Source: Patescibacteria group bacterium
GTDB lineage: Bacteria > Patescibacteriota > Minisyncoccia > Phycocordibacterales > Phycocordibacteraceae
Direction of reading: 5' to 3'
Assembly (NCBI GenBank): GCA_030837225.1
Contig: JAUPKX010000005.1
Location: forward strand, 8,049 to 72,048
DNA length: 64,000 bases
Within the stretch, counting starts at the first letter, position 1, and the number at the start of each line of letters is the position of its first letter. A model generated the notes under the pieces. It worked only from the letters and a program-made list of their open reading frames with translations, was not told the origin of the DNA and made no database searches. Positions 7,129 to 64,000 of the stretch are shown here, one piece after another. The position numbers were made by a program, and so were the translations under genes.

Positions 7129-7184
7129 GAATAGTTAGAATGAAATTGGTAAGAACATGAGTTTTCTTGTGTTCCGCCTATTCT
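7129..7184 (+). repeat. 5' arm of a long rRNA processing stem (inverted repeat partner at 10936-10986).
   Basis: 'tagttagaatgaaattg...aacatg...ttcttgtgttccgcctattc' is the reverse complement of 'gaataggcggaacacaag...catgtt...catttcattctaacta' downstream of the 16S. Confidence 0.75.
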
Positions 7185-7642
7185 TAATGAGAGTTTGATC
7201 CTAGCTCAGGATGAATGCTGGCTGTATGGATAAGGCATGCAAGTCGAACGGACCGCAAGGTCAGTGGCAGACGAGGTAGTAACACGTAGGTACGTACTCC
7301 GAAGTCGGGCATAGCCAACCGAAAGGTTGGGTAATTCCCGATAGTCCCGTAAGGGTAAAGATTTATCGCTTCGGAAGCGGCCTGCGTAGTATCAGCTTGT
7401 TGGTAAGGTAACGGCTTACCAAGGCTACGACGCTTAGGGGAGCTGAGAGGCTGACCCCCACCGATGGGACTGAGACACGGCCCATACTCCTACGGGAGGC
7501 CGCAGTCGAGAATCTTCCGCAATGGACGCAAGTCTGACGGAGCGATACAGCGTGATGGACGAAGTGCTTCGGTACGTAAACATCTTTTATGTGGGACGAA
7601 ATTATTGACGGTACCACATGAATAAGGGGCTCCTAACTCTGT

Positions 7643-8555
7643 AGAGTTAACGGTTAGGAATACCACAGCAAAGAATTCTGTAATTACTGGTGCAGCGTAG
7701 GTGAGCAATCGCCTACGAGAAAACTTGGCTATATGCTGGAAATCTCAAGGGACTGCGTCCTATAAAACTTAGGTTTTATAGGATCCCTTGAGACAATCAG
7801 CAGGGAAGTCGGGTATACTTAGTGAATGATCTGTGCTTTCTCTAATACGCAACGAGATATACTTGTTGGTCTTATGCTCGGAGATGGAAATCTCGAGTTT
7901 AATGGCTACCGAGGTACTCGATTGCAAATAAAGCAATCGGAGGAGAAAGAAGGGTATGTGCTCTGGCTTCACAGCCAGTTTGCAGATCTCGTACGGACTC
8001 CTCCGCAGCAACGAATGGATACACGTCAATGGTATTTCGGGACGCGCTTCTTCGAGAATTTAGAAGATCTAAGAAAGATTTTCTATAGCGATCGAAAGAA
8101 AGTTGTTCCTGCAAATATCAATGATCTGTTCCAGTCACCGCTCACGCTCGCGGTGTGGTTCATGGATGATGGACGGCTCGATTATCGAGCAAAGTCGCAT
8201 TATGCGTACCGTATAAGCACTGATTCCTTTACGGAATCAGAAGTGAAGCAGTTGCAAACATTGTTGTTAGAGAGATTTGGCATAGTGGCAAAAACGTATT
8301 TGTCACTGTGTCGAGGAAAACGCTATCCAAAGCTTTATATCGGAAAGGAAGGACGTGATCAGTTTACAAAGACTGTCGCTCCCTATATCCTTCCGTGCTT
8401 TGGATACAAGCTTCCTCCAGATTATCGCCAATATATCTTGACCCCTCAGAGACTACACGCCGAGCCCCGCATACGAACATAAGCGGGTGATGATATAGTC
8501 CGATCCCTACCGTGAGGTAGGTGGTCTCCTTACAAGAGACCTCTAAAACTGAATG
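7643..8555 (+). mobile_element. Group I intron 1 in 16S, inserted in the 'CTAACTCCGTG|CCAGCAGCCGCGG' region. It carries a homing endonuclease ORF.
   Basis: The upstream exon ends in T (U) and the insertion ends in G, as expected for group I splicing. The flanks reconstitute the conserved 16S sequence. Confidence 0.7.
7826..8482 (+). CDS. LAGLIDADG homing endonuclease (intron-encoded).
   Basis: Two LAGLIDADG-type motifs are present: 'LVGLMLGDGNL' and 'LAVWFMDDGRLD'. The ORF is located entirely inside the 16S insertion. Confidence 0.8.
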   Translation: MICAFSNTQRDILVGLMLGDGNLEFNGYRGTRLQIKQSEEKEGYVLWLHSQFADLVRTPPQQRMDTRQWYFGTRFFENLEDLRKIFYSDRKKVVPANINDLFQSPLTLAVWFMDDGRLDYRAKSHYAYRISTDSFTESEVKQLQTLLLERFGIVAKTYLSLCRGKRYPKLYIGKEGRDQFTKTVAPYILPCFGYKLPPDYRQYILTPQRLHAEPRIRT

Positions 8556-9418
8556 GCCAGCAGGAGCGGTAATACAGAGGCCCCAAGCATTATCCGGAAT
8601 CACTGGGCGTAAAGGGTGTCAAGGCGGTTATGTTAGTCGTTCGTTAAATCTGGGGGCTCAACCTCCAGCCTGCGAGCGAAACGGCATAACTTGAGGTCGG
8701 GAGAGGTATGTGGAACTCATGGTGTAGGGGTGAAATCCGTTGATATCATGGGGAACACCAAAGGCGAAGGCAGCATACTGGCCCGAATCTGACGCTCACA
8801 CACGAAAGCCAGGGTAGCGAATGGGATTAGATACCCCAGTAGTCCTGGCCCTAAACGTTGCTCGCTCGCTTTACGGAGTATCGACCCTCTGTGAGGCTAA
8901 GCTAACGCGGTAAGCGAGCCGCCTGGGTAGTACGATCGCAAGATTAAAACTCAAAGGAATAGACGGGGACTCGCACAAGTGGTGGATGATGTGGCTTAAT
9001 TCGTCGATAAGCGAAAAACCTTACCAAGGCTAGAAACCATGCTGCACGCTCCCAGAAACGGGAGAAGCCTTCGAGGGTGCATGGCAGGTGATGCATGGTC
9101 GTCGTCAGTTCGTGGCTTGAGCTGTTCCCTTCAGTGGGGTAACGAACGCAACCCCCGTTGTCTGTTAAATTTTCAGGCGAGACTGCCCCCTCACGGGGGA
9201 GGAAGGTGGGGATGACGCCAGATCAGCATGTCCCTTGATGCCTTGGGCTGCACACGTCATACAATGGGTGGTACAGAAGGACGCAATACGGTAACGTGGA
9301 GCAAATCCCAAAAACCACCCCCAGTACGGATCGAGGTCTGCAATCGACCTCGTGAAGCCGGAATCACTAGTAATCGTGGGTCAGCACACCACGGTGAATA
9401 CGTTCTCGAGTCTTGTAC

Positions 9419-9843
9419 TCATTCAAAAAAGTGCTCGGCAGGTATATAATCCAGTCCGTTAAAATCGGACCCAGATCTCTGAACGTGATCTGCGTAGCAA
9501 ACGGACAGTCGGAGAACCGCGAGGTTCACGGCAGAGGGTCCTAGTAGCAAAAAGCAGCCCTCCTGTAGTGATACAGGTAATGAAGCGTTCGCGACCCATC
9601 CTGGTGAGTGATGGGGAAGCGGGCCACTGAAAAGCTTCGAGCGGATGCAAGGAACGGAATATATACTGACCCGAGGAGATCTCATGAGGGTAGAGGTTAT
9701 ACACACCTCATGAGAAGTCAGCTGCGTCGTAGTAAGTATTGCAAAATACTGAAGGACAAAACCGGTATCAGTAAGATACTGGGCTCGCGTAGTACGAGAA
9801 ATTCGTACGCTACGTGGGAACGCGAAATTGACCTCAATTATCG
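9419..9843 (+). mobile_element. ORF-less group I-like intron 2 in 16S, inserted in the 'TTGTACACACCGCCCGTCA' region. The boundaries are within +/-3 nt.
   Basis: The 16S signature 'cttgtac' at 9411-9417 is separated from 'ccgcccgtcaagtcagg' at 9847 by about 425 nt. This insertion has no long ORF. Confidence 0.5.
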
Positions 9844-9934
9844 CAATCCGCCCGTCAAGTCAGGGAAGTTGGGGGTACCCGAAATCTTGGTTTATCCAGG
9901 ACTACGGTAAATTCAATGACAAGGACTAAGTCGT

Positions 9935-10738
9935 AGGGGCAATCTGCCCTAGTTGCGACTCTAAGCGAGTAATCGCTTTGCAATCAATTCGGCTATATGC
10001 TGGAACATCTGAGTATCCCTCGCTACGAGGTATAATAATAATTATGCCCGTGACAATGCGTAGGGTGCAGAAAATCAGCAGGGAAGGCCCTGGGGGACAG
10101 CAACTCAGCTCGTCCTCTAGGGAACCCTCAGAGACTACACGCCGAACTCCTCGGTGGACAAAGCGGCAACGCATCGCTCTTGCATACCTTAATGGTGCGC
10201 TTGGTGACGCGAGCCGCAATAAGAGATCACGCATCCGCTATGCGCAAAAGTATCCAGAATGGCTTCGAATGCTTCAGCAGTTACTTGCTGAACTTGGAGC
10301 GAAATCCTGGATGTATAAGGAGGGAAAACAGCGCTCAGTATTCGTACTTGAGACTTGCTGTCCTCAACTTGATTTTGCATGTAACGGAGAGCATCTTGAA
10401 ACGCGAGACGAAAGAATCGCCTACCTTCAAGGGTTCTTCGATGCTGAAGGTGGTGTTCCGCATGGGATACACGCACGCTTCTATATTCAGTTAGTCCAAA
10501 AAGACCGACCGAAAGTAGAGATGCTTGCTCGCATGCTGGACACACTCAGTATCAAGACTGGTGTCGTACATAATCCAAGTGTTCGTGTTGATCCTGAATA
10601 CTGGAGAGTATTCGTATCGACCCGTTCGCATGCTGCGTTCGCGCAGATAATTGGTTCGCGACATCCGGTCAAAGGACCGATCCTCCAGACGAGGATGAAG
10701 ATATAGTCCATGCCGCATGGCGACATGCGGGAAATCAT
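9935..10738 (+). mobile_element. Group I intron 3 in 16S, inserted inside 'AAGTCGT|AACAAGG'. It carries a second homing endonuclease ORF.
   Basis: Exon junction 'aagtcgt'+'aacaaggcacgg' restores the conserved helix-45 sequence. The exon ends in T and the intron ends in G. It shares the motifs 'ggctatatgctggaa' and 'gatatagtcc' with intron 1. Confidence 0.7.
9978..10706 (+). CDS. LAGLIDADG homing endonuclease (intron-encoded), a paralog of the first.
   Basis: 'LAYLNGALGDAS' and 'LQGFFDAEGGV' are LAGLIDADG-type motifs. The ORF is wholly inside the third 16S insertion. Confidence 0.75.
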   Translation: MQSIRLYAGTSEYPSLRGIIIIMPVTMRRVQKISREGPGGQQLSSSSREPSETTRRTPRWTKRQRIALAYLNGALGDASRNKRSRIRYAQKYPEWLRMLQQLLAELGAKSWMYKEGKQRSVFVLETCCPQLDFACNGEHLETRDERIAYLQGFFDAEGGVPHGIHARFYIQLVQKDRPKVEMLARMLDTLSIKTGVVHNPSVRVDPEYWRVFVSTRSHAAFAQIIGSRHPVKGPILQTRMKI

Positions 10739-11118: not shown

Positions 11119-11194
11119 GCAAGCGTAGCTCAGTTGGTAGAGCACTCGACTGATACTCGAGCGGTCGTAGGTTCGAATCCTACCGCTTGCACCA
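11119..11194 (+). tRNA. tRNA-Ile (anticodon GAU).
   Basis: Manual cloverleaf: acceptor gcaagcg/cgcttgc, D-arm gctc-agttggta-gagc, anticodon stem ctcga/tcgag with loop 'ctGATac', T-arm gtagg-ttcgaat-cctac, discriminator A and encoded CCA. Confidence 0.85.
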
Positions 11195-49158: not shown

Positions 49159-50067
49159 ATGGATGAGATAACTATTGGTGACAAGACATATGTCTCGTCA
49201 AAGCAGGCGGCAAAAATTACTGGTTACGCGAAAGACTATGTCGGTCAGCTTTGTCGAGAAGGGAGAGTAGAGGCTCGCTTAGTTGGCCGTAACTGGTATG
49301 TACTAGATTCAGCTATCCGAGAGCATAGATTTGGAAAGGAAGATGAAGTTGAGCTGGTAGTTAAACAGGAGCACGCCGTTACTGATAGAGCCTCAACATG
49401 GCAGAAGCCTCAGTATGTAGCTGAAACGCCTGTTTTAGTGCCTGAATTTAGCAATAAGGCAACAGAAACTGTGGGATCTCCGGCAATTGCTGATATGCAG
49501 TCTGCATGGAGAGAGTGGTTCGATGAGAAAAAGCCTCCACAGGTAGCGTTACCTGACGGGTCTGATGACTTTAAGGATGAGTATCTTCCAATAATCGTAC
49601 CAGAAACCGCTCCTGAGCCTGTTTTAGAGGCTCCAGCGATAGCGCAGACACAGAACGCTGACCAGGAAGAAATAGTCGCTATCTCACGAATTCGAAACCC
49701 TGAGCCAGAACCGCTAACAGTCGCAGAACAAGCAATACCGGAAGAAGAAAGAGTTGAGCTACATCGATCATATGCAACAGCGAACACTCCCCGCGAGGAA
49801 TACGAGGAAGTCTATCCAGAACAGCCGTTTGTTCGACAGGCACAGAGGCCAATAACTAAGCCAGCTGCTGTAGAGGTTAAGACATCGGGCAGCAGCATCG
49901 TCGTACGCGCACTCCTAGTCGTCGTATCTGTAGCTGCAATACTTACAGCGCTTATAGGAACAGGGAATGCGGAACAGCTTCTTTCAGGAACGAGCCTTGA
50001 TTACGGAGTGCAGAAGTCGATAGTAGACTTTCTCGGAGGAAAGAGCACGTATAAAAGTAGCTTATAA
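49159..50067 (+). CDS. Hypothetical protein with an N-terminal excisionase/MerR-like HTH-like domain, an acidic Pro/Glu-rich linker and a C-terminal TM helix. The N-domain is paralogous to the start of the downstream giant gene.
   Basis: 'SSKQAAKITGYAKDYVGQLCREGRVEARLVGRNWYV' fits the HTH_17-like pattern. C-terminal 'IVVRALLVVVSVAAILTALIG' is hydrophobic. Confidence 0.5.
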   Translation: MDEITIGDKTYVSSKQAAKITGYAKDYVGQLCREGRVEARLVGRNWYVLDSAIREHRFGKEDEVELVVKQEHAVTDRASTWQKPQYVAETPVLVPEFSNKATETVGSPAIADMQSAWREWFDEKKPPQVALPDGSDDFKDEYLPIIVPETAPEPVLEAPAIAQTQNADQEEIVAISRIRNPEPEPLTVAEQAIPEEERVELHRSYATANTPREEYEEVYPEQPFVRQAQRPITKPAAVEVKTSGSSIVVRALLVVVSVAAILTALIGTGNAEQLLSGTSLDYGVQKSIVDFLGGKSTYKSSL

Positions 50068-50679: not shown

Positions 50680-53600
50680 TTGAACTCTCTTCTCCAGAAA
50701 AATTTAATCTCAACGAAAGAGGCTTCTGCACTTTCTGGTTACAACGCCGACTACTTGTCGAGACTTTGTCGTGAGAAGAAAATTGCGAGTTCACAAGTTG
50801 GTCGCACGTGGCTGATTGAGAGAGCCTCACTCGAGGTTTTCATGGAGACTCAATTAGATAGGAAAATTGAGCTTGCTGAGAATCTTGCTCGGGAGAGGGA
50901 GCTTGAATATAGAAAGGCAAATAGTTCTGTCACCCAGGTTTTTGAGGCGGGGAATGATCTTGAGAATAAGATGCGCGTGGCAGCGAGTTCAATGCTTGGA
51001 GCTTTTTCCTCTGTACGCATACCACGTTCTATGCCAGTTATGAGTGGTCGTGCATTTGCTGCAGGACTTACTGCAGTCATACTCGGCGCTAGCGTAACAC
51101 TAGCGGGTAGTGGCGTTGTGGCACGCGCAGGTGAAATGTTATTGGCTTCAGCATTTGAGGTTCGCGCACTCGTTGTTACTGCTGTCTCCACATCAAACTC
51201 ACTTGCAGTAGAGAAGACTGCGGAATTTTCTAGAATTGCAGAAGATGAAATAAAAAAAGTAGACACATCGCTTGTTCGTGCGGCAGACACACGAGTGGCA
51301 ATGTTTCCCCTTACTCTCGGTGGAGTCATTGAGAATTCACACGAGCCGGTAGAGATGACTGAACTCGCGTATGCCCGTGCAAATGAAATCTTTGAAACGT
51401 ATCCCGAGCCTATTGCGTCCACGCAGACGGTTGAAAAAATCATGTATGCAGCAATGCACCCTAAAGAAGTGCTGGCAACAATTGCACGTGAGGCGATGTT
51501 TGCATACAGCCGACTTGGCGTGTACGCACTCAACGATATTCAAACCGTCCTCGCTCTTCACCTATATGGAGTTGAGGCGGCAGCGAACGGCCTCCTATCA
51601 GTTAGTGACAATACGAGGGATATCGCAGGACAGGCACCACTAGCTATCGGAAATGCATTTGTTACTACGTCCTCTGCAGTGCTGTCTTCGTACGAACATG
51701 CGGTCTACGCATATGTCGAGAACATTGATGTACTACCGAGCGCTATCACCGGTTTGGTATACGGGCTCGGGAACGGTATTGGCGGCTCAGTAGCGATGGG
51801 TGTACAGACTGCACCGGTTGCCTACGAAGAGAGCGTACTGGCCTTCGTAGAGGAGTCAGTATCTGCAGGATCGATGATCTCCGAAGGCTCGTTCGCCTTT
51901 GGAAAAGAAGCAGATAGAACGGTTTCAGGCCTTCTGGAAGCTGAGGACCGTGCCATAGTCCAGTCAGTAGAGAGTGTAAGGCTGGCCGTTACGAGTATTG
52001 AGAACACGACAGCAAGCGCAGCGCTCGCCATCGAATCAGTACCCTCAGTGGCTACTGACAAAGTCCTTGGAATTGTGGGAGGTATTGCACTTCGTATCGA
52101 GTCGACGGATACCAGCATGCTCTCAGCATCGCCGCTAGTTTCTCTTGATATTGATCGATTCATTCCGGGGTTCCTACGGAACGTAACTGCGGTTCTGGCG
52201 CATGCAGTGGGCAGCGCTTTCCACGGAATCTTCGGTCCGCTCGCTGGTTTCTTCGGCGCGTCGGAAGAAGTGGGACTCGCGGTTATCCCAAGCGATGGGA
52301 GTTCATTCTCTGGACCAAGTGGTGCAACCGGTACGGAAGAGGCAGTGAAAGGAAACACGACGGTCTATACCGGACCGGTAACCATCGTACGTAACGAATA
52401 CCCAACGGTGACGTACGGCGGGGTACCGCAGTCCTACGTCGACGAGCGCTACGAGTTCCTTCGCCGTACGCTTTATAACCGAATCGAAGATGTTTCAAAT
52501 GACGACACGTTCTACGGCGAGGTACGAGATAGCGGTATTTACGATAGCAGCATTGTTGATTCGACTTTTACCAATGGCGAAATCATCGATTCAACAATCA
52601 CTGGAGGAACTATCACGGGCGCTGCCCTCGATGTTTCGACCTCGACTATCACTGGCTCGCTAACTGTTAATGGAGACATCGCAGCTAATGCCATTGTCTC
52701 GACAAGCTCGACAAGTACGAACGCTACGTCAACGAATCTTTTTGCAACTAATGCATCCTTCACCAACCTTCTTGGCGGGAGTGCAACAATAACGAACGCA
52801 ACCTCGACATCGTTCTACGCAACACTCGCAACCATCGTTGATGGATTCTTCACGAACCTCACCGCGACACTCGCAACCATTACGAATGCGGTTATCACAA
52901 ACCTCACCGCAACGAACGCGACGCTCACGAATGCGACATCGACTAACGCTACGTCAACGAACCTCTTCGCCACCAACCTCACGGCTACGAGCGCAACCTC
53001 AACAAACCTCTTTGCTACAAGTGCACGCATCACGACCGGTATCATCGACGCGCTCACCTCACCGCTCGCAACCATAACCACTGCGATTGTCACAAACCTC
53101 ACGGCAACGAACTCAACGCTTACAAACGCAACCTCAACAAACTCGTTCGCACTTTCGTACCTCACCCCGTCCAGACTCTTGTCCGTCGGATCGAATGGCG
53201 TCGCAACCTCAACCAGCCTTTCCTCATGGGTTGCGGGTACCCTAAACCAACTCACCGTAACGGATAACGGTACCGGGGGAATCACACTCTCGCTCCCTTC
53301 GACCATTGCGATCGGCACCTCGCAGGTAACTACCATCCGAAGCGATGGTGCTACCTCGACCTTTGGTGGCGGTATTCAGGCCTCTATTGTCGAGGGAGGG
53401 CAGTATATCGCTGGTCCGTACGTCCTTGCTACCTCAACAACCGCTACCTCTGCATTCTCGGGCAATATTGCAGTTGGCAGGAATGCGACCTTTGGAACCA
53501 GTGCCTCTGATCTCCTTACGGTTAATAGCTCCGTAGCATCAAACCTCATTCCGACCACCAACAACACGTATGACTTCGGCTCAACCGCAAGCTACTGGCG

Positions 53601-56600
53601 CCGGGGCTATATAGACGACCTTACCGTTAACAATCTCTCGGCCGCATCGACTTCTATTGCAGGTACGGTTTCAAACTCGTTTACAATTAACGCCGACAAC
53701 GCGACGAACGACACGGAGGACGTAACACTCATTTTCAAGAGGGGCACCGCATCACCAAATGCGCTCATGACGTGGAATAGCTCAACGGATCGTTTTGAGT
53801 TCAACATGCCGGTATTCTCCGCAACCGGCCTCTTCACGAGCGCAACTTCGACAAACTTCGGCACCACGAACTTCACCCTTAACAGCAACACCTTCACGAG
53901 TCTTCTTGGTACGGGACTCTCGAACGTGAGCGGTGCACTTACGGTTGATTACGACGCCCTCGATTCCGACTTCTTCCGTCAGGGAGGGAACTCATACGCA
54001 ACTACTGCAATGCTCGGTACAAATGATGCTAACGATCTCGCGTTTGAGACGAATGGTACGACGAAGATGACGATCCTTTCGGGAGGGAATGTTGGTATCG
54101 GCACCACGACACCAACCGGCAGACTCTCCATTGTTGCGAGCACAACCGGGGACTCACTCGTGATAGCAAGCACTACGGGCGCCCGCATGCTCACCGTTAA
54201 TCCAGGCGGATCCCTCATCTTCTCTGCAACGGGCCAGTCATACAAAGTGGTGTCTGGCGCAGACGAATATGGCCCAGACATTTTCCTTAATCGCACAATA
54301 GGGACCGAAGCGACCGCGAACGAGCACGGCATCATCGATCGCAACCAATTTGGAAGGGCGACCAAGGCCTATAACTCGTACGATTCTCAAACATACTTCA
54401 CTGGTACGAGTAACTACGACCACTACGCCGGCTTCCAGGCGCGGGGCGTGATGAATTCATCCGGTACGCTGACGGACTACTACTCGTTCTACTCAGCGCC
54501 TCAAGCAAGTGCAGGAACCATAACGAACGTATACGGGCTCAAGGCAGCTAATCCAGCAGGTGCAGGTGCAGTTACGAACAACTACGGTGTCTATATTGAT
54601 AGTCAGACGAAGGGAACGAATAACTTTGCCATCTACACAGATGGCACCACGAAGTCCTATTTCGGAGGAAACGTCGGCATCGGTACAACGACACCATCTT
54701 CTCTCCTCGACCTGTATAAGAGCACGGACGGATACACCAAAATAACCGTACGGAACCCGAACACGGGTACTGATGCGTTAACTGGTATAGATTTCGTGCA
54801 GGACCTGGGCGGCGTGGGATCCTTGTACGCTACAGGAAATACCTTTGACGGAAATGCAGACTTTGGCGCAATGTCAGGCTTCTCGAATAGCCTCTGGTTA
54901 GACGCATCGTTTGAACTAACTGGAGGCTTGAAGCTCGTAGCACGCAATGGAGACATTGGCTTCTATGCAGGAAGTAGATCGACACAGAACGTAACAATAT
55001 CGGGTACGAATGGAAACTTAGGCGTTGGCTCAACCACGCCGTATGCAAGACTCTCTGTTAAGGGAGCAGGTACAACTACCGGTGTTAACTTCCAGACCAC
55101 CAACTCAAGCAACTCACCACTCTTTACGGTACTTGATAGCGGTAACGTTGGTATCGGTACTACAACACCTGCCGAGCTACTCACCATTGATAGCGGAAGT
55201 CTCCGTTTCGAGTCAGTAAGCGCAGGGAGAGGAATACTCGCCAGCAGTAACGGTGTTAACCAGGTGTTCTCACTTACGCGGCAGGATACGGTTGCGTCTG
55301 CCGACCTATCAATATCTGGGTACGGGGGGGTCGGTATTACGGGCGGAAGGACGTCATCTCCTGCTACATCTGCCTACCACTTGTACGTAAATAGTGCCGG
55401 CAACGTTGGTATCGGTTCTACCACTCCAGCTGAGAACCTCACGGTTAACGGAGCAATTCAGTGGGGTAACACAACTCCTTCTACAGGAACAGCAAATATC
55501 TATAACTCAGGACGGCTCGGCACATACAACAGTGGTGCGTCACCGCTTGCACAATACAATTACGTGCAACCAGCAACAGGGAAAGCGCTTGTTGTCTGGA
55601 ACGCAAACAGCAATATAGTTGCAGCGTTCGGTCAGACCGGTAGTGATACGAACACTAACTCCTATTTTGCAGGCAACGTGGGTATTGGTACTACAAGCCC
55701 AGCTCAGAATCTGCATATAGATCAGGGCACAGCAAGTACCCTCCCTATTATTCAGCTTAGCGGAGCAGGCGGAACCATCGCAAAAATTGGTCGGGCAAGT
55801 AATTTCATGAATGCCGGAACTGCCGCTGACCTAGGAATTAATGCTCCGACAAGTCAATCACTGTATCTCGGAGTGGGCGGCTCATCGTTTGTAACACTTA
55901 AATCGACAGGCAACGTGGGTATTGGAACAACGACGCCTATCGGCAAACTCACCGTCTACGAGGATTCTGACGCCGTGATGTACACCGCTAATCCTTCTGC
56001 CAATGTATTCTCAGAAAACTACATTGACACAACCAACAATGTTACCAACCACCGGTCCGTTGCGTACGCTCACCAGTTTTACACTTCTGGTAGCACGATA
56101 GCAGCAGCAACAGAGAAGATGCGTATACACCAAAATGGAAACGTCGGTATTGGTACTACCTCACCTGAAGCAGCGCTCACCGTTAATGGAGATATAAAGA
56201 CAAACGGTGGCTTTACGACATACGCAACAAATGAAGTGTTTAAGGCTATAAACGGCGGTACGAGTGCTGTGGCGGCTCGCTACGGCAATAGCAACAATGA
56301 TTTCTATGTCGGTACAGAAGGCAATACTGCGGGAGGCTACTTCACCGGTGCACTCGCAAATAGCTCTGTACTCTATAGTACCCGCGCAGTGCAGACCATC
56401 ATAGGAGGAGTATCGAGAATGATTATTGATACGTCAGGCAACGTTGGTATTGGTACGACCAGCCCAGAAGGGAAGCTTGATGTCAATGCTGGACTCGGGG
56501 TCTACTCATACATTGGAGGTTCAGTACTGGGACATAGAAGCATCCGTATGGGCGCTGACGCTAGTGGGTATGCAACGATTCAAGGCACAGGAAGAGGTAC

Positions 56601-59600
56601 ACAGATAGGGAGTTTCTTTAACATAACGCTACAGCCAGGCGGTGGCAACGTTGGTATTGGCACTGTGAGTCCTGGGGAAAAGTTAGAGGTTTCTGGAAAT
56701 ATAAAGCTTTCGACATCCGCTAGTTATCTAGCATTTGGCAATCCGAGTACTCCGCTTTACCTTGGTAGCGGAAACTCTTTATTGTTTTCTCCGGATAATA
56801 ATGAGCAATATGCAGTATTAAGGGGCTATGCTGGGGCTGTATTAGCGGTAGGAGGTAATCCGGGGCTGCTCTTAAACGCCAGTAGCAACGTCGGTATTGG
56901 CACGACGAACCCCGGGACCAAGCTCCATGTCCTCTCTACCAATGCCGGCGGAGACTCAAACACCCTCATGCTAGATAACGCTGGAGCATCCGGCATTACT
57001 ACCACGAGTCTCACGTTCGCGAACGGAGGAGCGGTAAAGGCAAGAATAACGGGTGCTGTGTATGGTGATGGATACCTCGCGTTCAACACGAATGACGATA
57101 CTGAGAAAATGCGTATTACCGCAGTAGGCAGGGTCGGTATTGGAACGACTACACCGCAAGGCAAATTCCACGTTAAGGGCTCAGATGGCGAATCCTTACT
57201 AAGAGTGTCTGGCGCAACAGGAGGTATAAGAATACGCCCGTATGTGGACGCAACCTCAGGCACCTACATTGAAAGTGTGAATACTGCAGAAAGTGCCTAT
57301 CTACCGTTGCGTCTTGAAGCCTCAACGACAATATTAGGCATAAACGGCAATGTCGGTATTGGTACAACCACACCGCTTTCTAAACTCCAGGTTTCAACAA
57401 GTGGTGCAGATGCGTTCAGTCTCGATCTTCTTACAGGAAGCTCTCACGATACCGGCATACGCATCGGACGTGGTAGTGGTGCTAATGGTGCAGGAATACA
57501 GATGGTGACTTCCGCTACAGACTATCTTAGTTTCTACGTAAATGGTTCCGCGCTCCCTGCTATTAATACAGCAGCTCAGATGGTGCTTACGGAGGGTGGC
57601 AACGTCGGTATTGGTACCACGGGACCGTTAGGAAAACTCCATGTCCTAACCTCTACCGACACCACACCAAACACCATTGCGGCGTTTGATGCACGGCACG
57701 CTGTCTTCGGTCCAGGCACTGTCGATGGTGTTTCTATCTCTAAGACAACGGGGGGTAGTGCCTACATCAGCTCCGTTCGTCCAGGTATTGCATGGGATCC
57801 GCTAGCTGTACAAGCAAGTACCTTTAGTGTTAATCCTAGTAGCGGTACCACAGCCTTCCATGTTACTGCGGCAAGCAACGTCGGTATCGGCACGGTATCT
57901 CCTGGAAGTAAATTACAAGTTAGTACGGGCAACTCTAGTTATGTAGCCAGCACAGCCGCCTTTTCTGTGCGGAAAAACGAAGAGGGGTACGGACTGTTTG
58001 TTGGTAATGCCAGCTCTGGCAACAGTTGGTTACAGGCAGGCTATTCCGACGGCTCACTACTCTATGACTTGATACTGCAACCTAATGGCGGAAAGGTTGG
58101 TATTGGTACTACGACGCCTTCGGAAAAGCTTTCGGTTGCAGGAGACATCTTTGTGAGTGATGCCACAGACCCAGAACTCAAACTCAATAAGACTAGCGGT
58201 ACTCAAAAAACATTCTCGTTTAATGTAAATAATGACAACGCATTTCAATGGCTAGACAGGACAGCAGGCCTTACGCGCTTGTACCTCACGACAGGCGGCA
58301 ACATGGGTATCGGGGACTACTACGGGGCAACTACCAATACCCCACAGAATAAGCTCTCAGTAGCAGGAAGTGCGTCGATCGGGTATGCCGTGGGTAGTGA
58401 TGTTGCGGCTCCTACCAATGGCCTCATCGTTAATGGCAACGTCGGTATTGGTACTACCACTCCACAGGAGGAACTATCAGTCTCGAAGAACGGCGTTCCA
58501 CAGATTAGCCTTGAAAATAGGAGCGGCACTACTCGTAACGCCCAAATCATATTCCGCAATACAGCGGGTCCTACGTGGCGGCTCGGTACGGACATGAGCA
58601 CCAATAACAATACGGACAACTTCCAAATCTATAAGGATGCCCTAGGTCTTCCGGTGCTTACTATCGACTCCGCGGGTGACGTCGGTATCGGTACCGGACA
58701 TACAAATCCACTCTACCCACTCGATGTAAATGGACTCGCTCTCATTCGCGGATACACGGTTGGTGTTACCGCCGCACTCGCTGATGCCTATAAGTTTACC
58801 CATGACGGCGGAACCTCATTCGTGAACAACCAAGGAGGGAGCTTTGGTGTCGGCACAACGACCCCAACAGTTGAAATGGAAATTGGTGGTAGCAGCTCGC
58901 CATCATTACGTTTGCGTCCGTATTTCGCAGGCGCTCCTGACGCAAGCGGGTACTACACAACAATTAATGCGGCGTACTCTGATGAGGCAATGAATCTTAG
59001 TGTTGGTGGCTACAAGGTGCTCTCAACACTCGGCTACGACACTCCGACTCAGTTGCTTCTCTACACAGGCAACACCGAGCGATTGCGCATTAATTCCTCA
59101 GGCAACGTTGGTATTGGTACCTCGAACCTCTTTAAGCCCCTTACGGTTGAAGTAGGAACTGCGGGAGGTGTTAATCAGGGAATTGTAATAAACAGCTCAC
59201 ACGCTTTCGGTAGCGGCCAGGGAACGGCTGCAGCAGCGCTTGTGTTCGCGCGCAATCGCACTATAGACACCTCATCTTTGTATGCTATGGCGCAGATCGA
59301 TGGAGGAAATGAGAGCGAAACCACGAGTGCATACGGCTACCTTGCGTTCTCAACTGCGAACAGTGGCGGAACGCTGGTGGAGCGAATGCGCACTTCGTCC
59401 TCAGGCAACGTCGGTATTGGTACCACCACTCCAGACTCAAAACTCAATATCCAGATGGCGGGAGATGGAACGGGACTTGCTATAAATTCGAGCTACTCAG
59501 CAGGAGGATACAAAAAAATCATTGACGCCGGTCAGACTGGTTCGGACGGGTATCTCAAAGTGAACGACGCGCTCGGTGCCACGGTGAGTTACTTGAGTGG

Positions 59601-62600
59601 CTACACTTCGAGTCCTTCATATTTCTTGAGTAGTGTCGGTATTGGTACAAGTACCCCGGTAAGTAAGTTCAGTGTGTATCAAGCATCAGGTGCAGGAAGG
59701 AGCATTGCCGAATTCTCCAATGGTAACAGGGACCGGATGCTCCAGGTCGTACATGATATTTCTGGAGACTCAACCTCTTACATCGGTCTCAATGCCCGAG
59801 AATTTGGATCGACTCTTGGACGTGACTTCGTCATTCAGACAGGAGGGACTGAAAGAATGCGCGTAGCGTATTCAACAGGCAACGTCGGTATTGGTACCGT
59901 GAATCCCGGCGCAACGCTCGACGTTAAGAGCCAGATCAACCTAACTAATGCAACCGGTAATTCGATGGTAGGAGTCAGGGGGACTGAGTTCGGATATGCT
60001 GCGGGCTACAAGGCGCTGCAGATAGGAGCTACATCTGGCACCTACACCGTAAGTATCGGCTACGATCCGTCGACCAACGCAAGCCCAGCATTCACGGGGG
60101 ACGGCAGTGAGGTTATCTTCAGGAACGGCGTGAAGTTCCTAACGCCGAACGCTGCGAATAATAGCTATCTCAGCACCATGACGATGCTGAATGGCAACGT
60201 CGGTATTGGCGAGACTGCTCCAAGTGAGAAACTCGTTGTTGCAGGGCAGGGAACAGGCAGGATGCTCGTTGGAGACGTAGGGTTCGGTGACGGGTACACG
60301 GGCCTTTCGATGAATGGCGTACTTTCCACCACGAATTACAACCTCTTAGGCTCGCCTGGTCAGGCGCACTTTTGGATTAATCGTGCAACAGGAGGGAATA
60401 TCAGCTTCCGTGAGAATAACGGTACCGACCAGATGACTATTGCGTCAGGTGGTAACGTTGGTATTGGTGTAACTGCCCCTGACGGCAAGCTTCATATTCT
60501 CAACAATACGGCCTCGCAAGCGTTAAGTAGCGGTAGTATTCGGCTCGCCGGTTCCGCATACGCATCTTCAGGATGGGCAATGCGCATACCTGATGACGGA
60601 TCTACGGGAAATTTGTACTTCGACAGGGAATACGCCGGCTGGGCTTCAACCCCTGTCCTTATGTTGCAACGATCTACAGGCAACGTAGGTATTGGCACAA
60701 CAAACCCTACCGCTAAGCTAACGTTGAATGGAACTGCCGGAGCTAATCCAAATGCTGGTGCAGAGATTGAGTATACAAATGCGCTTATTTTCCAATCAAG
60801 CAGCGCACATTCCGTTGGTGCAATTAAAACAGTGCAACCAACTGGGTACTATGTGGATGCTGCCGACATGACTTTCTCTACAGGATACGGCAGTTTAACT
60901 GAACGTATGCGTATTCAGGGCAGCACAGGCAACGTCGGTATTGGCACCACAACTCCATCCGGAACCCTTGATATATACAAAGCAGGCAATGCCACCCTTA
61001 ATATAACGGGTACTAACATCGCGGGCATAAACCTGAAGGGTGATAATGGTAGTGGATTTGCAAACATAAACACCTACAACGACGGTACCTTGCGTATAGG
61101 GGCAAGCGTCTCTGGATACAACTCAGGCACAACAGATCTTGTGATTAAGAATGGTTATGTTGGTATGGGTACTGCAAGTCCGCTAGCCAGGTTACAGGTT
61201 GGTGATAGTGCATCTCTCACTAATTATCAAGGTGCAACTGTAGGTATCGTACGGCCTGCCGGCTCAGGCTCATGGTTAGAGTTAGCTGACAACACAACTT
61301 ACGGCTCGGCGTTCCGTATTTCGCAGGATTCAAATAGTGGAATAGCTTTTAACTCTAATGGTCGTGATATTGGTTTTAGGGCAAGCGGCTATAGTACTGC
61401 CATTGCCGATGCGCAGCTTGTTTTGAAGTCGTCGGGTAATGTCGGTGTCGGCGCCCAAATTCCGCTGGCAAAATTACACGTACAGCAAGCGCTACCAACT
61501 AGCATTGGCAGTTTGCCATCAAATGTCGGCCTAATCTTAGATTCAAACACTCACAACTACTTGCTATTTAGAAACACCGCCGATAATAGTACGTATTCCG
61601 GACTTCAATTCCAAGATAATAATGTCGGGGGATATTTGGTATTCCAAAATTTTAGTGGCGGCGTCACAAGCGACAGCATGCTCTTTGGTACATATCAGGA
61701 CTTTGTCTTCCAAACTGGTACTTCGGAAACAGTTGGGGGCAAGAGCACAGTTATGACGATTAAACAGACTGGAAACGTTGGTATTGGTACAACCAATCCT
61801 CTCGCTATAGATGGCGGTGCTGCAACACGCTTTCACACTAAAGTTACGGGTGGAACAGGGAATATTGAAGTGGCTCGATTTGAAGGAGGCGACGATACCG
61901 ATAACACCTACGCAGTGTTGCGCGTAAACCATAACAACGATCGCGGTTTCTTTGTGAAAGGTGGGCGGCAGACAGGGGACACGGCCATAGCTACCATGGG
62001 ACTCACAAACAATGGAGGAGCAATGACAGACATCATGACATTCCTCGGCAGCAACGTTGGTATTGGAAATACCTCTCCAGGCGAAAAACTCACCATTGAA
62101 GGCAACAGTGCTGCCATGCTCATTCAGACGGCATCTGATCCTACGGTCTATCGAGCAAAGATCACTGCTAACTACAACTATACGAACTCAGTACTCTTCA
62201 CGGGACTCAACAACACGGAAATTATTGGCCAGTATGCGTATAACGTTACGGTAGGTAATTCGTCAGGTAACGTTGGTGTCGGTACAACAGGTCCAACTCA
62301 GAAGTTCTCTATTCTCGCCACGGGCATATCTAATCAATTCGAACTTCGCAATAATAATCAGGCCCTTTGGATTCGCCAAGGATACAAATCGGATGGAACC
62401 GCTACCCCCGCCGCAGACACAAATAATGTGCAGTTCCAGTCAAGTGGAAGCTCTAGCGGTACCTTCTCCTTCACTAGCGGAAACGATGAAGTGTTGCGTA
62501 TGACACTTGGTAGTAGTGGTATACGATTCAATGCCTATGGAGCAGGTACGCTCGTGACTGACGCTTCAGGAAATATAACCGCATCATCTGACGAACGTCT

Positions 62601-64000
62601 CAAGGACATAGAGGGGGAGTTCACTCGTGGTCTGGATGATCTCATGAACATCAACCCCATTAACTATCGCTGGAAAGCGTCAACTGGATTAGATACAGTT
62701 AATAGCTATAGCGGATTCTCAGCACAGGATGTTCAGAATGCTATTCCTGAGGCCATCGATACTGATCCTCAAGGGTATCTCACACTCTCTGATCGTCCGA
62801 TTCTTGCAGCATCCGTTAATGCCATTAAGGAGCTCAACCTTAGAACCCTTTCGCTCGCACCTAGTGCACAGAACCAGGAAGCACACTCGCTCGCTGTTTC
62901 AAGCGACGCCTCAATCGCTGGCATACTCACCGTTACTGGAATCGGAACCTTTAGCGACTCGCTTACTGCGGCAAGCGTGCTTACGGATGGTTCTGTAACA
63001 GCACTATCGTTCCTCACAGGAACGGACGGAACTCTTCCACAAGAAGTCCTTACGGGAGGCAACGCAGATCTCTTCAAGATGGCGAGCTACGCTATAACAG
63101 GTATACAGGCACTCTCCGAGCGTACTGACCTCCTTGCGACTCGTATTGATGAGATTGATGCCCGCGTAACAGCACTCGAGAACGGCTCTACAGCGGACGA
63201 GATATCCGGCGCCGTTGGCCTTACGGTTGCAACCATAAAGAGCGCACTCCAGACCCTCGGTATCTATCTTGAAAACGGGGTAGCTACATTCGAGACCCTC
63301 GTATTCCGCCAGCTTGCGGTTGCCAAGGACACCAATGGCGACTCCTCAGCAGGAAGCGAGACCATCCTTGCGGGCAACACGGTTGTTGAAGTAGAGAACC
63401 CCTACGTCCTTCCAACCTCAAAGATCTTTGTTACCTTCACGGGACCGATTCAAGGCGCTTGGTACATCAGCAACAAAGAGGAAGGGAAGTTCCGGGTAAC
63501 GCTTGCAACAGGCCAGTCCGCAGACGTATCCTTCGACTACTTCATCCTTCAGACTGAAGGCCAGCTAGCGTCCCCTGGCGCTGCGGCGCCAATACAGACT
63601 CCGAACGACCCAGCTCCATCGAACGATCCGCTCCCTCCTGTCTTCCCAGGTGAGGGAACAGGCACCACAACACCGGTTATGGGCTCTGGAGACACAACAC
63701 CGCCTTCTATCACCTTAAACGGCCCTGCAGCGCGCGAAATAGACCAAGGTGCCACTTGGATTGATCAAGGCGCTACTGCCTCAGATGAGACCGATGGCGA
63801 CCTCACAAGCTCCATACAGGTCCAAGGAACTGTTGATACGGGTACACCAGGCACCTATACGGTATCGTACTCGGTATCAGACGCAGCAGGGAATGAGGCG
63901 CATGTATCCAGGATAGTCTCAGTGCAGGTTGTATCAGAGCCAGCACCAAGTCCAGAACCGGCGCCAGAGCCAGCACCAAGCCCAGAACCGGCGCCAGCAC
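50680..64000 (+). CDS. Giant repeat-rich membrane-anchored surface / fibre-like protein, 5' partial: it runs off the window end, so at least 4,440 codons lie in the window. It is absent from the supplied ORF track because no stop codon occurs. The start is probably TTG at 50680; the first in-frame ATG is at 50842.
   Basis: Manual translation in the frame whose codon starts are congruent to 1 mod 3. A TAA lies at 50653-50655, then there is no stop through 64000. The frame was re-verified at 50992, 52441, 55441, 58441, 61441 and 63901. The product has a coherent domain architecture, detailed in the sub-features. Confidence 0.8.
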   Translation, partial: MNSLLQKNLISTKEASALSGYNADYLSRLCREKKIASSQVGRTWLIERASLEVFMETQLDRKIELAENLARERELEYRKANSSVTQVFEAGNDLENKMRVAASSMLGAFSSVRIPRSMPVMSGRAFAAGLTAVILGASVTLAGSGVVARAGEMLLASAFEVRALVVTAVSTSNSLAVEKTAEFSRIAEDEIKKVDTSLVRAADTRVAMFPLTLGGVIENSHEPVEMTELAYARANEIFETYPEPIASTQTVEKIMYAAMHPKEVLATIAREAMFAYSRLGVYALNDIQTVLALHLYGVEAAANGLLSVSDNTRDIAGQAPLAIGNAFVTTSSAVLSSYEHAVYAYVENIDVLPSAITGLVYGLGNGIGGSVAMGVQTAPVAYEESVLAFVEESVSAGSMISEGSFAFGKEADRTVSGLLEAEDRAIVQSVESVRLAVTSIENTTASAALAIESVPSVATDKVLGIVGGIALRIESTDTSMLSASPLVSLDIDRFIPGFLRNVTAVLAHAVGSAFHGIFGPLAGFFGASEEVGLAVIPSDGSSFSGPSGATGTEEAVKGNTTVYTGPVTIVRNEYPTVTYGGVPQSYVDERYEFLRRTLYNRIEDVSNDDTFYGEVRDSGIYDSSIVDSTFTNGEIIDSTITGGTITGAALDVSTSTITGSLTVNGDIAANAIVSTSSTSTNATSTNLFATNASFTNLLGGSATITNATSTSFYATLATIVDGFFTNLTATLATITNAVITNLTATNATLTNATSTNATSTNLFATNLTATSATSTNLFATSARITTGIIDALTSPLATITTAIVTNLTATNSTLTNATSTNSFALSYLTPSRLLSVGSNGVATSTSLSSWVAGTLNQLTVTDNGTGGITLSLPSTIAIGTSQVTTIRSDGATSTFGGGIQASIVEGGQYIAGPYVLATSTTATSAFSGNIAVGRNATFGTSASDLLTVNSSVASNLIPTTNNTYDFGSTASYWRRGYIDDLTVNNLSAASTSIAGTVSNSFTINADNATNDTEDVTLIFKRGTASPNALMTWNSSTDRFEFNMPVFSATGLFTSATSTNFGTTNFTLNSNTFTSLLGTGLSNVSGALTVDYDALDSDFFRQGGNSYATTAMLGTNDANDLAFETNGTTKMTILSGGNVGIGTTTPTGRLSIVASTTGDSLVIASTTGARMLTVNPGGSLIFSATGQSYKVVSGADEYGPDIFLNRTIGTEATANEHGIIDRNQFGRATKAYNSYDSQTYFTGTSNYDHYAGFQARGVMNSSGTLTDYYSFYSAPQASAGTITNVYGLKAANPAGAGAVTNNYGVYIDSQTKGTNNFAIYTDGTTKSYFGGNVGIGTTTPSSLLDLYKSTDGYTKITVRNPNTGTDALTGIDFVQDLGGVGSLYATGNTFDGNADFGAMSGFSNSLWLDASFELTGGLKLVARNGDIGFYAGSRSTQNVTISGTNGNLGVGSTTPYARLSVKGAGTTTGVNFQTTNSSNSPLFTVLDSGNVGIGTTTPAELLTIDSGSLRFESVSAGRGILASSNGVNQVFSLTRQDTVASADLSISGYGGVGITGGRTSSPATSAYHLYVNSAGNVGIGSTTPAENLTVNGAIQWGNTTPSTGTANIYNSGRLGTYNSGASPLAQYNYVQPATGKALVVWNANSNIVAAFGQTGSDTNTNSYFAGNVGIGTTSPAQNLHIDQGTASTLPIIQLSGAGGTIAKIGRASNFMNAGTAADLGINAPTSQSLYLGVGGSSFVTLKSTGNVGIGTTTPIGKLTVYEDSDAVMYTANPSANVFSENYIDTTNNVTNHRSVAYAHQFYTSGSTIAAATEKMRIHQNGNVGIGTTSPEAALTVNGDIKTNGGFTTYATNEVFKAINGGTSAVAARYGNSNNDFYVGTEGNTAGGYFTGALANSSVLYSTRAVQTIIGGVSRMIIDTSGNVGIGTTSPEGKLDVNAGLGVYSYIGGSVLGHRSIRMGADASGYATIQGTGRGTQIGSFFNITLQPGGGNVGIGTVSPGEKLEVSGNIKLSTSASYLAFGNPSTPLYLGSGNSLLFSPDNNEQYAVLRGYAGAVLAVGGNPGLLLNASSNVGIGTTNPGTKLHVLSTNAGGDSNTLMLDNAGASGITTTSLTFANGGAVKARITGAVYGDGYLAFNTNDDTEKMRITAVGRVGIGTTTPQGKFHVKGSDGESLLRVSGATGGIRIRPYVDATSGTYIESVNTAESAYLPLRLEASTTILGINGNVGIGTTTPLSKLQVSTSGADAFSLDLLTGSSHDTGIRIGRGSGANGAGIQMVTSATDYLSFYVNGSALPAINTAAQMVLTEGGNVGIGTTGPLGKLHVLTSTDTTPNTIAAFDARHAVFGPGTVDGVSISKTTGGSAYISSVRPGIAWDPLAVQASTFSVNPSSGTTAFHVTAASNVGIGTVSPGSKLQVSTGNSSYVASTAAFSVRKNEEGYGLFVGNASSGNSWLQAGYSDGSLLYDLILQPNGGKVGIGTTTPSEKLSVAGDIFVSDATDPELKLNKTSGTQKTFSFNVNNDNAFQWLDRTAGLTRLYLTTGGNMGIGDYYGATTNTPQNKLSVAGSASIGYAVGSDVAAPTNGLIVNGNVGIGTTTPQEELSVSKNGVPQISLENRSGTTRNAQIIFRNTAGPTWRLGTDMSTNNNTDNFQIYKDALGLPVLTIDSAGDVGIGTGHTNPLYPLDVNGLALIRGYTVGVTAALADAYKFTHDGGTSFVNNQGGSFGVGTTTPTVEMEIGGSSSPSLRLRPYFAGAPDASGYYTTINAAYSDEAMNLSVGGYKVLSTLGYDTPTQLLLYTGNTERLRINSSGNVGIGTSNLFKPLTVEVGTAGGVNQGIVINSSHAFGSGQGTAAAALVFARNRTIDTSSLYAMAQIDGGNESETTSAYGYLAFSTANSGGTLVERMRTSSSGNVGIGTTTPDSKLNIQMAGDGTGLAINSSYSAGGYKKIIDAGQTGSDGYLKVNDALGATVSYLSGYTSSPSYFLSSVGIGTSTPVSKFSVYQASGAGRSIAEFSNGNRDRMLQVVHDISGDSTSYIGLNAREFGSTLGRDFVIQTGGTERMRVAYSTGNVGIGTVNPGATLDVKSQINLTNATGNSMVGVRGTEFGYAAGYKALQIGATSGTYTVSIGYDPSTNASPAFTGDGSEVIFRNGVKFLTPNAANNSYLSTMTMLNGNVGIGETAPSEKLVVAGQGTGRMLVGDVGFGDGYTGLSMNGVLSTTNYNLLGSPGQAHFWINRATGGNISFRENNGTDQMTIASGGNVGIGVTAPDGKLHILNNTASQALSSGSIRLAGSAYASSGWAMRIPDDGSTGNLYFDREYAGWASTPVLMLQRSTGNVGIGTTNPTAKLTLNGTAGANPNAGAEIEYTNALIFQSSSAHSVGAIKTVQPTGYYVDAADMTFSTGYGSLTERMRIQGSTGNVGIGTTTPSGTLDIYKAGNATLNITGTNIAGINLKGDNGSGFANINTYNDGTLRIGASVSGYNSGTTDLVIKNGYVGMGTASPLARLQVGDSASLTNYQGATVGIVRPAGSGSWLELADNTTYGSAFRISQDSNSGIAFNSNGRDIGFRASGYSTAIADAQLVLKSSGNVGVGAQIPLAKLHVQQALPTSIGSLPSNVGLILDSNTHNYLLFRNTADNSTYSGLQFQDNNVGGYLVFQNFSGGVTSDSMLFGTYQDFVFQTGTSETVGGKSTVMTIKQTGNVGIGTTNPLAIDGGAATRFHTKVTGGTGNIEVARFEGGDDTDNTYAVLRVNHNNDRGFFVKGGRQTGDTAIATMGLTNNGGAMTDIMTFLGSNVGIGNTSPGEKLTIEGNSAAMLIQTASDPTVYRAKITANYNYTNSVLFTGLNNTEIIGQYAYNVTVGNSSGNVGVGTTGPTQKFSILATGISNQFELRNNNQALWIRQGYKSDGTATPAADTNNVQFQSSGSSSGTFSFTSGNDEVLRMTLGSSGIRFNAYGAGTLVTDASGNITASSDERLKDIEGEFTRGLDDLMNINPINYRWKASTGLDTVNSYSGFSAQDVQNAIPEAIDTDPQGYLTLSDRPILAASVNAIKELNLRTLSLAPSAQNQEAHSLAVSSDASIAGILTVTGIGTFSDSLTAASVLTDGSVTALSFLTGTDGTLPQEVLTGGNADLFKMASYAITGIQALSERTDLLATRIDEIDARVTALENGSTADEISGAVGLTVATIKSALQTLGIYLENGVATFETLVFRQLAVAKDTNGDSSAGSETILAGNTVVEVENPYVLPTSKIFVTFTGPIQGAWYISNKEEGKFRVTLATGQSADVSFDYFILQTEGQLASPGAAAPIQTPNDPAPSNDPLPPVFPGEGTGTTTPVMGSGDTTPPSITLNGPAAREIDQGATWIDQGATASDETDGDLTSSIQVQGTVDTGTPGTYTVSYSVSDAAGNEAHVSRIVSVQVVSEPAPSPEPAPEPAPSPEPAPA
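52560..53170 (+). repeat. Thr/Asn/Ala/Leu-rich low-complexity segment of the giant protein, with quasi-periodic 'ATSTNLFATN' / 'LTATNATLTN' units. It is dense in N-x-T/S sequons.
   Basis: Translation: '...TNATSTNLFATNASFTNLLGGSATITNATSTSFYATLATIVDGFFTNLTATLATITNAVITNLTATNATLTNATSTNATSTNLFATNLTATSATSTNLFATSA...'. Confidence 0.6.
54084..62300 (+). repeat. Array of about 30 divergent tandem protein repeats, about 70-100 aa each, within the giant gene. Each is marked by the motif (S/G)GNVGIGTTxP followed by xKL(x)V.
   Basis: The nucleotide word 'ggcaacgt(c/t)ggtat(t/c)gg' recurs near 54084, 54664, 55150, 55410, 55672, 55905, 56141, 56436, 56645, 56887, 57130, 57341, 57600, 57885, 58095, 58436, 58678, 59101, 59404, 59640, 59878, 60193, 60455, 60676, 60928, 61150, 61436, 61775, 62052 and 62270. 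Several copies share identical 20-23-nt stretches. Confidence 0.75.
62587..62856 (+). other. Peptidase S74 / intramolecular chaperone auto-processing domain (endosialidase-type CIMCD), internal to the giant protein.
   Basis: 'SSDERLKDIEGEFTRGLDDLMNINPINYRWKASTGLDTVNSYSGFSAQDVQNAIPEAIDTDPQGYLTLSDRPILAASVNAIKELN' matches the family consensus (S-D-x-R-L-K, Y-RWK, GF-AQ-V, P-E, GYL, AIKEL). Confidence 0.75.
63701..63921 (+). other. DUF5011/Ig-like surface domain within the giant protein, downstream of the S74 domain.
   Basis: 'PPSITLNGPAAREIDQGATWIDQGATASDETDGDLTSSIQVQGTVDTGTPGTYTVSYSVSDAAGNEAHVSRIVSV' follows the DUF5011 pattern (ItLnG...G..y.DpGatA.D..DGdlt..v...g.vdt...GtYtvtY.vtD.aGN.a...R.V.V). 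Confidence 0.5.
63937..64000 (+). repeat. Tandem 30-nt repeat encoding an (EPAPSPEPAP)n Pro/Glu linker. It continues past the window edge.
   Basis: 'gagccagcaccaagtccagaaccggcgcca' at 63937-63966 and 'gagccagcaccaagcccagaaccggcgcca' at 63967-63996. Confidence 0.7.

Follow-up and report, generated by a model that had tools for sequence, protein, structure and literature searches.

Each of the separate elements considered here is already known: the Peptidase_S74 (S74) domain, phage-like fibres on predatory bacteria, and an internal S74 domain in the eukaryotic protein MYRF. In MYRF the chain continues past the domain (PMC3742443; PMC8326128), the proven dyad consists of S587 and K592, which correspond to S911 and K916 of endoNF, and the chain is cut on the N-terminal side of the serine (PMC8326128). 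In Bdellovibrio bacteriovorus, Bd3182, a mosaic adhesive trimer (MAT) fibre of the S74 subgroup, cuts itself at S782, and the substitution S782A abolishes the cut (PMC10769870). Here we describe an S74 domain that lies well inside a giant open reading frame (ORF) of a Patescibacteria group bacterium, at 50680-63999 of a 64,000-nucleotide stretch of contig JAUPKX010000005.1 (the window, to which all coordinates refer). Residues are numbered from the TTG codon at nt 50680. The features that identify the domain are these:

62545-62865, + strand: Peptidase_S74 (intramolecular chaperone) domain with a conserved 14-residue lead-in, residues 3956-4062 (Pfam, family model, PDB profile, AlphaFold2 and Foldseek)
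62587-62604, + strand: 'SDERLK' motif, with Ser3970 (codon at nt 62587) as predicted nucleophile, Lys3975 (nt 62602) as predicted general base and the predicted scissile bond between S3969 and S3970
62665-62673, + strand: Tyr3996 and Trp3998, aligned with the MYRF aromatics Y615 and Y617 and nearly invariant in the family alignment

The segment is a genuine Peptidase_S74, or intramolecular-chaperone, domain. PF13884 matches residues 3970-4026 with 36.3 bits (E 6.7e-9) in the whole protein and with 39.6 bits (E 6.7e-10) when the C-terminal 571 residues are searched, the gathering score being 22, and the domain reaches 162.8 bits against a hidden Markov model (HMM) of the family. A single-sequence search of the PDB with residues 3920-4297 returned a weak match to MYRF (E 0.4) together with chance matches, and a profile built from 41 related S74 segments was used instead. 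This profile matches the S74 parts of a tail-fibre protein (8jov, 5.6e-15), of the long tail fibre of phage S16 (6f45, 2.6e-11) and of MyRF ICA (7dc3, 8.8e-9), with the serine and lysine columns in register with all three. The motif SDERLK aligns with SDERLK and SDRRIK of phage fibres and with S587(A)...K592 of MYRF, in which Y615 and Y617 line the cleavage site (PMC8326128). All structure predictions in this work are of monomers; in the AlphaFold2 model of residues 3925-4130 the S74 core has a predicted local distance difference test score (pLDDT) above 94 and the characteristic fold, a beta 'donut' with a C-terminal helix, and Foldseek places MyRF ICA first among its PDB matches (7dc3, E 1.5e-5, probability 1.0), followed by endoNF (3gw6) and GA-1 (3gud). 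A preliminary description of this DNA, made from the letters and their translations, had assigned the domain to this family with the serine of SDERLK and a lysine as the catalytic pair; both assignments are borne out, and the start coordinate that it gave, 62587, is the exact serine codon.

All 82 close relatives have S-x4-K, and serine and lysine are kept in 90 of the 91 internal S74 copies of the family, the sole exception being re-alignable to S-x4-K. The catalytic equipment for self-cleavage thus appears to be present, and from these invariant residues we infer that the protein is cleaved. Since Ser-to-Ala mutants of Bd3182 (PMC10769870) and of MYRF (PMC8326128) give stable, uncleaved protein, this conservation suggests that the serine is retained for cleavage and not for folding.

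Among the relatives with the same S74 subtype, 30 proteins end no more than 35 residues past the domain, and because relatives with a terminal S74 stop there we place the end of the domain at about residue 4058-4062. About 380 residues lie beyond it, and 472 residues run from Ser3970 to the probable end of the protein, in keeping with the 470 codons counted earlier. These residues hold the following:

62866-63051, + strand: Ser/Thr/Ala-rich segment of about 60 residues, ending in 'LPQEVLTGGNAD' (pLDDT 53-74, no strands predicted)
63070-63180, + strand: 37-residue helix, a putative trimeric coiled coil, residues 4131-4167 (AlphaFold2 pLDDT 82-91, model residues 7-43)
63262-63549, + strand: predicted eight-stranded beta-sandwich knob, lectin-like and resembling tailspike C-terminal domains, residues 4195-4290 (AlphaFold2 pLDDT 85-96)
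63565-63708, + strand: Pro/Gly/Thr-rich linker, read from the sequence
63709-63924, + strand: Bact_surface_Ig-like domain (PF16403, formerly DUF5011), residues 4344-4415 (75.3 and 80.6 bits, gathering score 27)
63928-63999, + strand: Pro/Glu-rich C-terminal tail '...EPAPSPEPAPEPAPSPEPAPA', residues 4417-4440, truncated by the window end

The long helix, the Ig-like domain and the Pro/Glu stretch had been listed before and are all found; the beta-sandwich, of about 95 residues and joined to the long helix through a short one, was missing from that list. Its stretch has no match in Pfam or PHROG, and NCBIfam has none anywhere in the C-terminal 571 residues. Compared with predicted viral structures, the knob model is closest to proteins annotated 'K1 capsule-specific polysaccharide lyase C-terminal domain' and to H-type lectin domains, and its resemblance to such tailspike domains of known structure (7W1C, 9K4A, 7EEA) comes with 12-26% identity. 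The model thus points to a lectin-like terminal domain of the phage-spike kind, the likeness being one of fold only.

The segment between the S74 domain and the helix appears to record how the module came about. Aligned with three relatives (P0008, P0025 and P0121), 'LPQEVLTGGNAD' is what remains of another S74 domain's second half; these relatives carry that second domain complete at the same position, with STREAK or STRSAK. In them the long helix is the last helix of that second domain, of which the window protein retains just 'LPQEVLTGGNADLFKMASY'; the family HMM, run at maximum sensitivity, finds no second S74 domain in the window protein, and this short remnant is visible by alignment. 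Because the long helix belongs to the second S74 in these three proteins, the tail module probably arose as an extension of the S74 domain.

The helix and beta-sandwich together, here called the tail module, served as the query for tracing the family. A word-indexed homologue search with the module alone returned 2 proteins, and an exhaustive HMM search was used instead, which returned 1,577 cluster representatives at E<1e-3, of which 163 reach E<1e-30. Many of the representatives that bear the module are 2,000-7,275 residues long, and the module always lies 45-310 residues from the C-terminus; in 138 representatives, 91 full S74 domains stand upstream of it, typically 16-120 residues away. 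A scan of one genome per GTDB species gave 104 relatives of the module, and all 80 of the 80 loci retained are from Patescibacteria (Paceibacterota, Kaiserbacteria, Nomurabacteria, Minisyncoccia and some labelled Saccharibacteria), while no relatives of it were found on the viral contigs of IMG/VR. At the level of sequence the module is restricted to Patescibacteria. Of the 69 species loci with enough upstream sequence to be judged, 50 have a full S74 domain before the module in one unbroken frame, at a median gap of 78 residues. The internal S74 layout is a lineage-wide design and not an error, and the concern that the downstream part might be a separate gene, joined by a sequence error, is removed by the recurrence of the same domain order in a single frame in at least 50 genomes.

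The position of the domain had been called unusual. It is indeed internal, but it is not without precedent: besides MYRF, 33 of 82 bacterial proteins of the same S74 subtype have a post-S74 tail of more than 100 residues. Eleven of the 82 (for example P0066, P0070, P0073, P0081 and P0094) carry, instead of the helix-plus-sandwich, a small two-cysteine motif, '..LC[IV]..x..C[IVL]T..QL..LL', which is another recurrent post-S74 extension. Giant relatives with two to four complete S74 domains, serine and lysine intact, also occur (P0169, with S74 at 1481, 2645, 3736 and 4927; P0142; P0145), and each of their internal S74 domains is followed by the same fibre 'restart' ('...NATSTNTD..LCLGxDCRSSWP..DLSGYALL...'), so that these proteins look like several fibres concatenated in one ORF. 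As a separate observation, the gene calls of three Minisyncoccota-type relatives (P0014, P0025 and P0027) have their start within an intein (PF14890, '...THNFVGNDIFAHNT') that lies a short distance upstream of the tail module; some giant fibre genes therefore contain inteins.

The protein that carries the domain begins and continues as follows:

50680-63999, + strand: giant ORF, 4,440 codons or more, with no stop before the window end; about 4,441 residues with a probable stop one codon later
50707-50853, + strand: HTH_17, an excisionase-type helix-turn-helix (HTH) predicted to be cytoplasmic, residues 10-58 (Pfam 25.8 bits, slightly below the gathering score of 27; TIGR01764 24.6 bits)
51052-51123, + strand: sole hydrophobic transmembrane (TM) helix, the membrane anchor, residues 125-148 (Kyte-Doolittle; same position in relatives)
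54091-62307, + strand: fibre stalk with 27 'VGIGTTTPxxKL' motifs (regular-expression count), residues 1138-3876, spaced about 70-100 residues apart

Frame 1 of the + strand is free of stop codons from nt 50653 through the window end, and we take the TTG at 50680 as the start since the N-termini of two full-length relatives (P0123 and P0128) match there. A start at M118 with a Sec signal peptide, cut between '...VVARA' and 'GE', was considered and rejected, the HTH region upstream of it being conserved in divergent relatives. At the other end, a metagenomic contig (L001; JGI 3300043411) is 93.8% identical in nucleotides to nt 62798-64000 over its positions 1254-2456 and reads '...CCG TAA' right past the last position of the window, its protein ending in '...EPAPAP'; because of this stop, the protein very probably ends one residue past the window. 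The same contig gives a view of selection and exchange. In the tail module it differs from the window at 16 synonymous and 4 non-synonymous codons, and the module is under purifying selection. Identity between the two starts within the last S74 helix and climbs toward the 3' end, the sequence upstream being divergent, and there are 0 synonymous differences across the last 140 codons; this pattern suggests that the terminal cassette recently recombined, or underwent gene conversion, between paralogues or strains.

The product of 4,440 residues contains 0 cysteines, and Gly, Thr, Ser and Ala make up 45% of it. Its stalk matches phage tail-fibre PHROGs at 3e-27, the AlphaFold2 monomer model has beta strands upstream of S74, and the repeated motif fits the capping-loop consensus of the Bdellovibrio MAT fibres, V-G-G/N-pi-x-x-P-x-x-x-L (PMC10769870). 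Identity to two relatives (P0125 and P0123) is a mosaic, at 65-75% over the first ~1,100 residues, ~25% over the ~2,700-residue stalk, the length of which differs between these proteins and the window protein, and 62-73% over the last ~560 residues. Nowhere in the protein but at residues 125-148 does a 19-residue window exceed a Kyte-Doolittle hydropathy of 1.6, and the N-terminus of HTH_17, charged helix and TM helix (50680-51123) is kept in relatives that otherwise share only ~25% identity (P0128, P0172, P0191, P0198, P0207, P0221, P0231, P0245 and P0253). At the cytoplasmic end of so large an extracellular fibre, a domain of DNA-binding type might serve as an anchor, as a localisation tag or in signalling. 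The gene directly upstream (49159-50067, 302 residues) also has an HTH of this kind at its N-terminus ('SSKQAAKITGYAKDYVGQLCREGRV...'), with one hydrophobic helix close to the C-terminus, and the fusion of an excisionase-type cytoplasmic HTH to a membrane anchor thus seems to recur in this genome as a module.

The ORF lies among genes for a Wzy_C/TPR protein, MurB, SecA, an amino-acid kinase-family protein, Obg and GatB, and the window also holds ribosomal RNA (rRNA); no location among phage structural genes was found. With such housekeeping neighbours and an N-terminal HTH and TM helix conserved across the family, the protein is chromosomal and membrane-anchored, not the fibre of a prophage. 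The preliminary description had left a choice between a cellular giant protein and a domesticated tail-fibre module. Each half of the choice stands, but the two are not alternatives, as this is a cellular giant made almost wholly of phage-fibre-like modules.

With the phage S74 proteins (K1F endoNF, 3GW6; GA-1, 3GUD; T5 pb1; S16 gp37, 6F45) the window protein shares PF13884, the S-x4-K spacing, the predicted fold, a phage-fibre-like stalk before the domain and a C-terminal helix suited to a triple coiled coil. However, the phage domain ends its protein, PHROG profile matches finishing 10-20 positions before the profile end, whereas the ~380 further residues of the window protein hold three more folded modules, in a cellular, membrane-anchored protein of 4,441 residues. 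It resembles MYRF in its internal S74 domain, its membrane anchor, its N-terminal DNA-binding-type domain and the aligned Ser/Lys pair and aromatics. In MYRF, however, the S74 domain is cytosolic and stands before the TM helix, and cleavage frees the DNA-binding part, whereas the order here is HTH, TM helix, stalk, S74. As the TM helix comes first and S74 lies ~3,800 residues onward, outside the cell, cleavage of the window protein could not release the HTH. The DNA-binding-type domains also differ, being HTH_17 here and Ndt80-like in MYRF.

The Bdellovibrio MAT fibres are likewise non-phage, cell-surface proteins, with phage-like beta-helix trimers, a repeated capping-loop motif (27 matches in the window protein) and S74 domains, on a bacterium that lives on other cells; the fibre of the window protein is seen through its sequence and monomer models. 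In contrast to the window protein, which is four times longer, MAT proteins have about 1,000 residues and end at S74 or at one alternative tip domain, whereas here S74 is followed by a helix, the beta-sandwich, the Ig-like domain and the tail, a conserved knob-plus-Ig arrangement. The N-termini differ too, with a signal peptide and a beta-rich, conserved ~130-residue domain in MAT proteins and HTH_17 plus a TM helix here. A full-text literature search found no description of S74 domains in Patescibacteria or Parcubacteria, and nothing on proteins of this kind in the literature on giant surface or tail-fibre proteins of Patescibacteria; a preprint on giant genes nowhere mentions S74, endosialidase or tail fibres. 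A polymorphic toxin was also considered; Zhang et al. 2012 include tail-fibre repeats among the parts of toxins but name no S74 releasing peptidase, and since the window protein has no toxin domain the reading was dropped.

By analogy with endosialidase, phage T5 pb1, Bdellovibrio Bd3182 and MYRF, we propose, with belief and doubt about evenly balanced, that this region is the C-terminal assembly-and-processing module of a chromosomal giant surface fibre of Patescibacteria (Paceibacterota/Parcubacteria-type), with trimerisation-triggered self-cleavage and a detachable chaperone or cap. The HTH would remain in the cytoplasm and one TM helix would span the membrane, with ~4,290 residues exported and the module of S74, helix, knob and Ig-like domain emerging last. 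Three chains would then join through the C-terminal helix of S74 and the coiled coil that follows, and their association would set the register for folding of the phage-fibre-like trimeric stalk. In the assembled S74 trimer, Ser3970 and Lys3975 would cut between S3969 and S3970. The predicted products are an anchored fibre of 3,969 residues (408 kDa per chain) with a new C-terminal tip and a trimeric module of 472 residues (48.8 kDa per chain, isoelectric point 4.05). The C-terminal fragment would most likely be an enlarged, detachable chaperone or cap and not a permanent adhesive tip, because known S74 products separate and because the last ~560 residues are far more conserved than the stalk. 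High terminal and low stalk conservation fits a role in assembly, like that of phage chaperone domains, and not that of host-specific tips. Phage chaperone domains are conserved beside variable receptor-binding parts.

Several observations weigh against this proposal. To discard a lectin-like knob and an Ig-like domain that are under purifying selection seems wasteful, such domains being expected at the tip of a working adhesin; the relatives with two to four S74 domains would yield several pieces with only the first anchored, which is hard to reconcile with a chaperone-only role; and in 19 of the 69 judgeable genomes no S74 domain is detectable before the tail module, so that the module can work without one. 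It may be, then, that the chain is cut while its fragments stay joined, with the knob-plus-Ig trimer non-covalently bound as the working host-binding tip and cleavage serving to relieve strain or to make a breakable joint. The knob does resemble lectins and the receptor-binding C-terminal domains of tailspikes, PF16403 is typical of bacterial surface proteins, and the module is conserved under purifying selection across more than 100 species. Nevertheless, we consider such a bound tip unlikely, given that Bd3182 gives separate fibre and chaperone bands (PMC10769870), that in MyRF the ICA domain and the stalk share almost no contacts (PMC8326128), and that a host-specific tip is expected to be more variable than its stalk, the reverse of what is observed.

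Alternatively, S74 might not cut at all, and might act as a trimerisation node, a register-setting knot in a continuous chain that stays intact from anchor to Ig tip. In favour of such a node, some relatives have as many as four S74 domains, with a new stretch of fibre after each, and full cutting would detach most of the protein; the downstream domains, adhesin-like and conserved, speak for it too. However, a node would hardly keep serine and lysine in 90/91 internal copies and in 82/82 close relatives together with the aromatics of the cleavage site, the more so as the serine is apparently dispensable for folding in the stable, uncleaved mutants of Bd3182 and MYRF, and this leads us to think it rather improbable. 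That an assembly or frameshift error has joined a separate gene, the 470 codons downstream, to this frame, or that the whole is the tail-fibre gene of a prophage, we regard as very improbable indeed. The sequence is probably of metagenomic origin and every building block has phage relatives, but the same continuous frame recurs in the genomes of 50 independent species and in many cluster representatives of full length, the codon differences from the metagenomic contig are mostly synonymous, the neighbours are housekeeping genes, the HTH and TM anchor are conserved throughout the family, and the tail module is on no viral contig in IMG/VR.

Beyond the proposed detachable cap, it is conceivable, although we are inclined to doubt it, that the S74 domains of Patescibacteria are built-in self-cleaving separators, through which one giant gene would, like one for a polyprotein, give a surface apparatus of several parts. 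If so, the window protein would become an anchored fibre of ~200 nm (a rough scaling from Bd3182) and a released trimeric lectin/Ig particle with a function of its own, for example as a host marking, a removable safety cap or a decoy, and in the relatives that have two to four S74 domains a single ORF would yield several separate fibres, these relatives being bacterial surface polyproteins. If cleavage occurs, the self-cleaving chaperone logic of phage spikes, Bdellovibrio and MYRF would extend to the release of a multi-domain lectin/Ig particle.

Patescibacteria, also known as the Candidate Phyla Radiation (CPR), account for a large part of bacterial diversity and spend their lives on the surface of other cells, to which they attach, and how they grip and sense their hosts is largely unknown. 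This locus and its family of more than 160 clusters offer concrete candidates for both functions, namely fibres that are anchored in the membrane, are assembled from the receptor-binding parts of phages and carry a conserved processing module. In the annotation of Patescibacteria genomes, S74 is unsuitable as a marker of protein ends or of phage.

The rRNA of the window has features of its own. The 16S rRNA gene (7183-9460) is found as two Rfam pieces, 7183-7763 and 8361-9460, separated by an insert that holds a LAGLIDADG_2 endonuclease ORF (7826-8482, E 1.4e-32). Inserts of the LAGLIDADG type in rRNA genes are a hallmark of CPR/Patescibacteria. A group I intron (9923-10730, 54.3 bits) with a LAGLIDADG_3 ORF (9978-10706) sits between the 3' end of the 16S rRNA gene (9460) and tRNA-Ile(GAT) (11119-11194).

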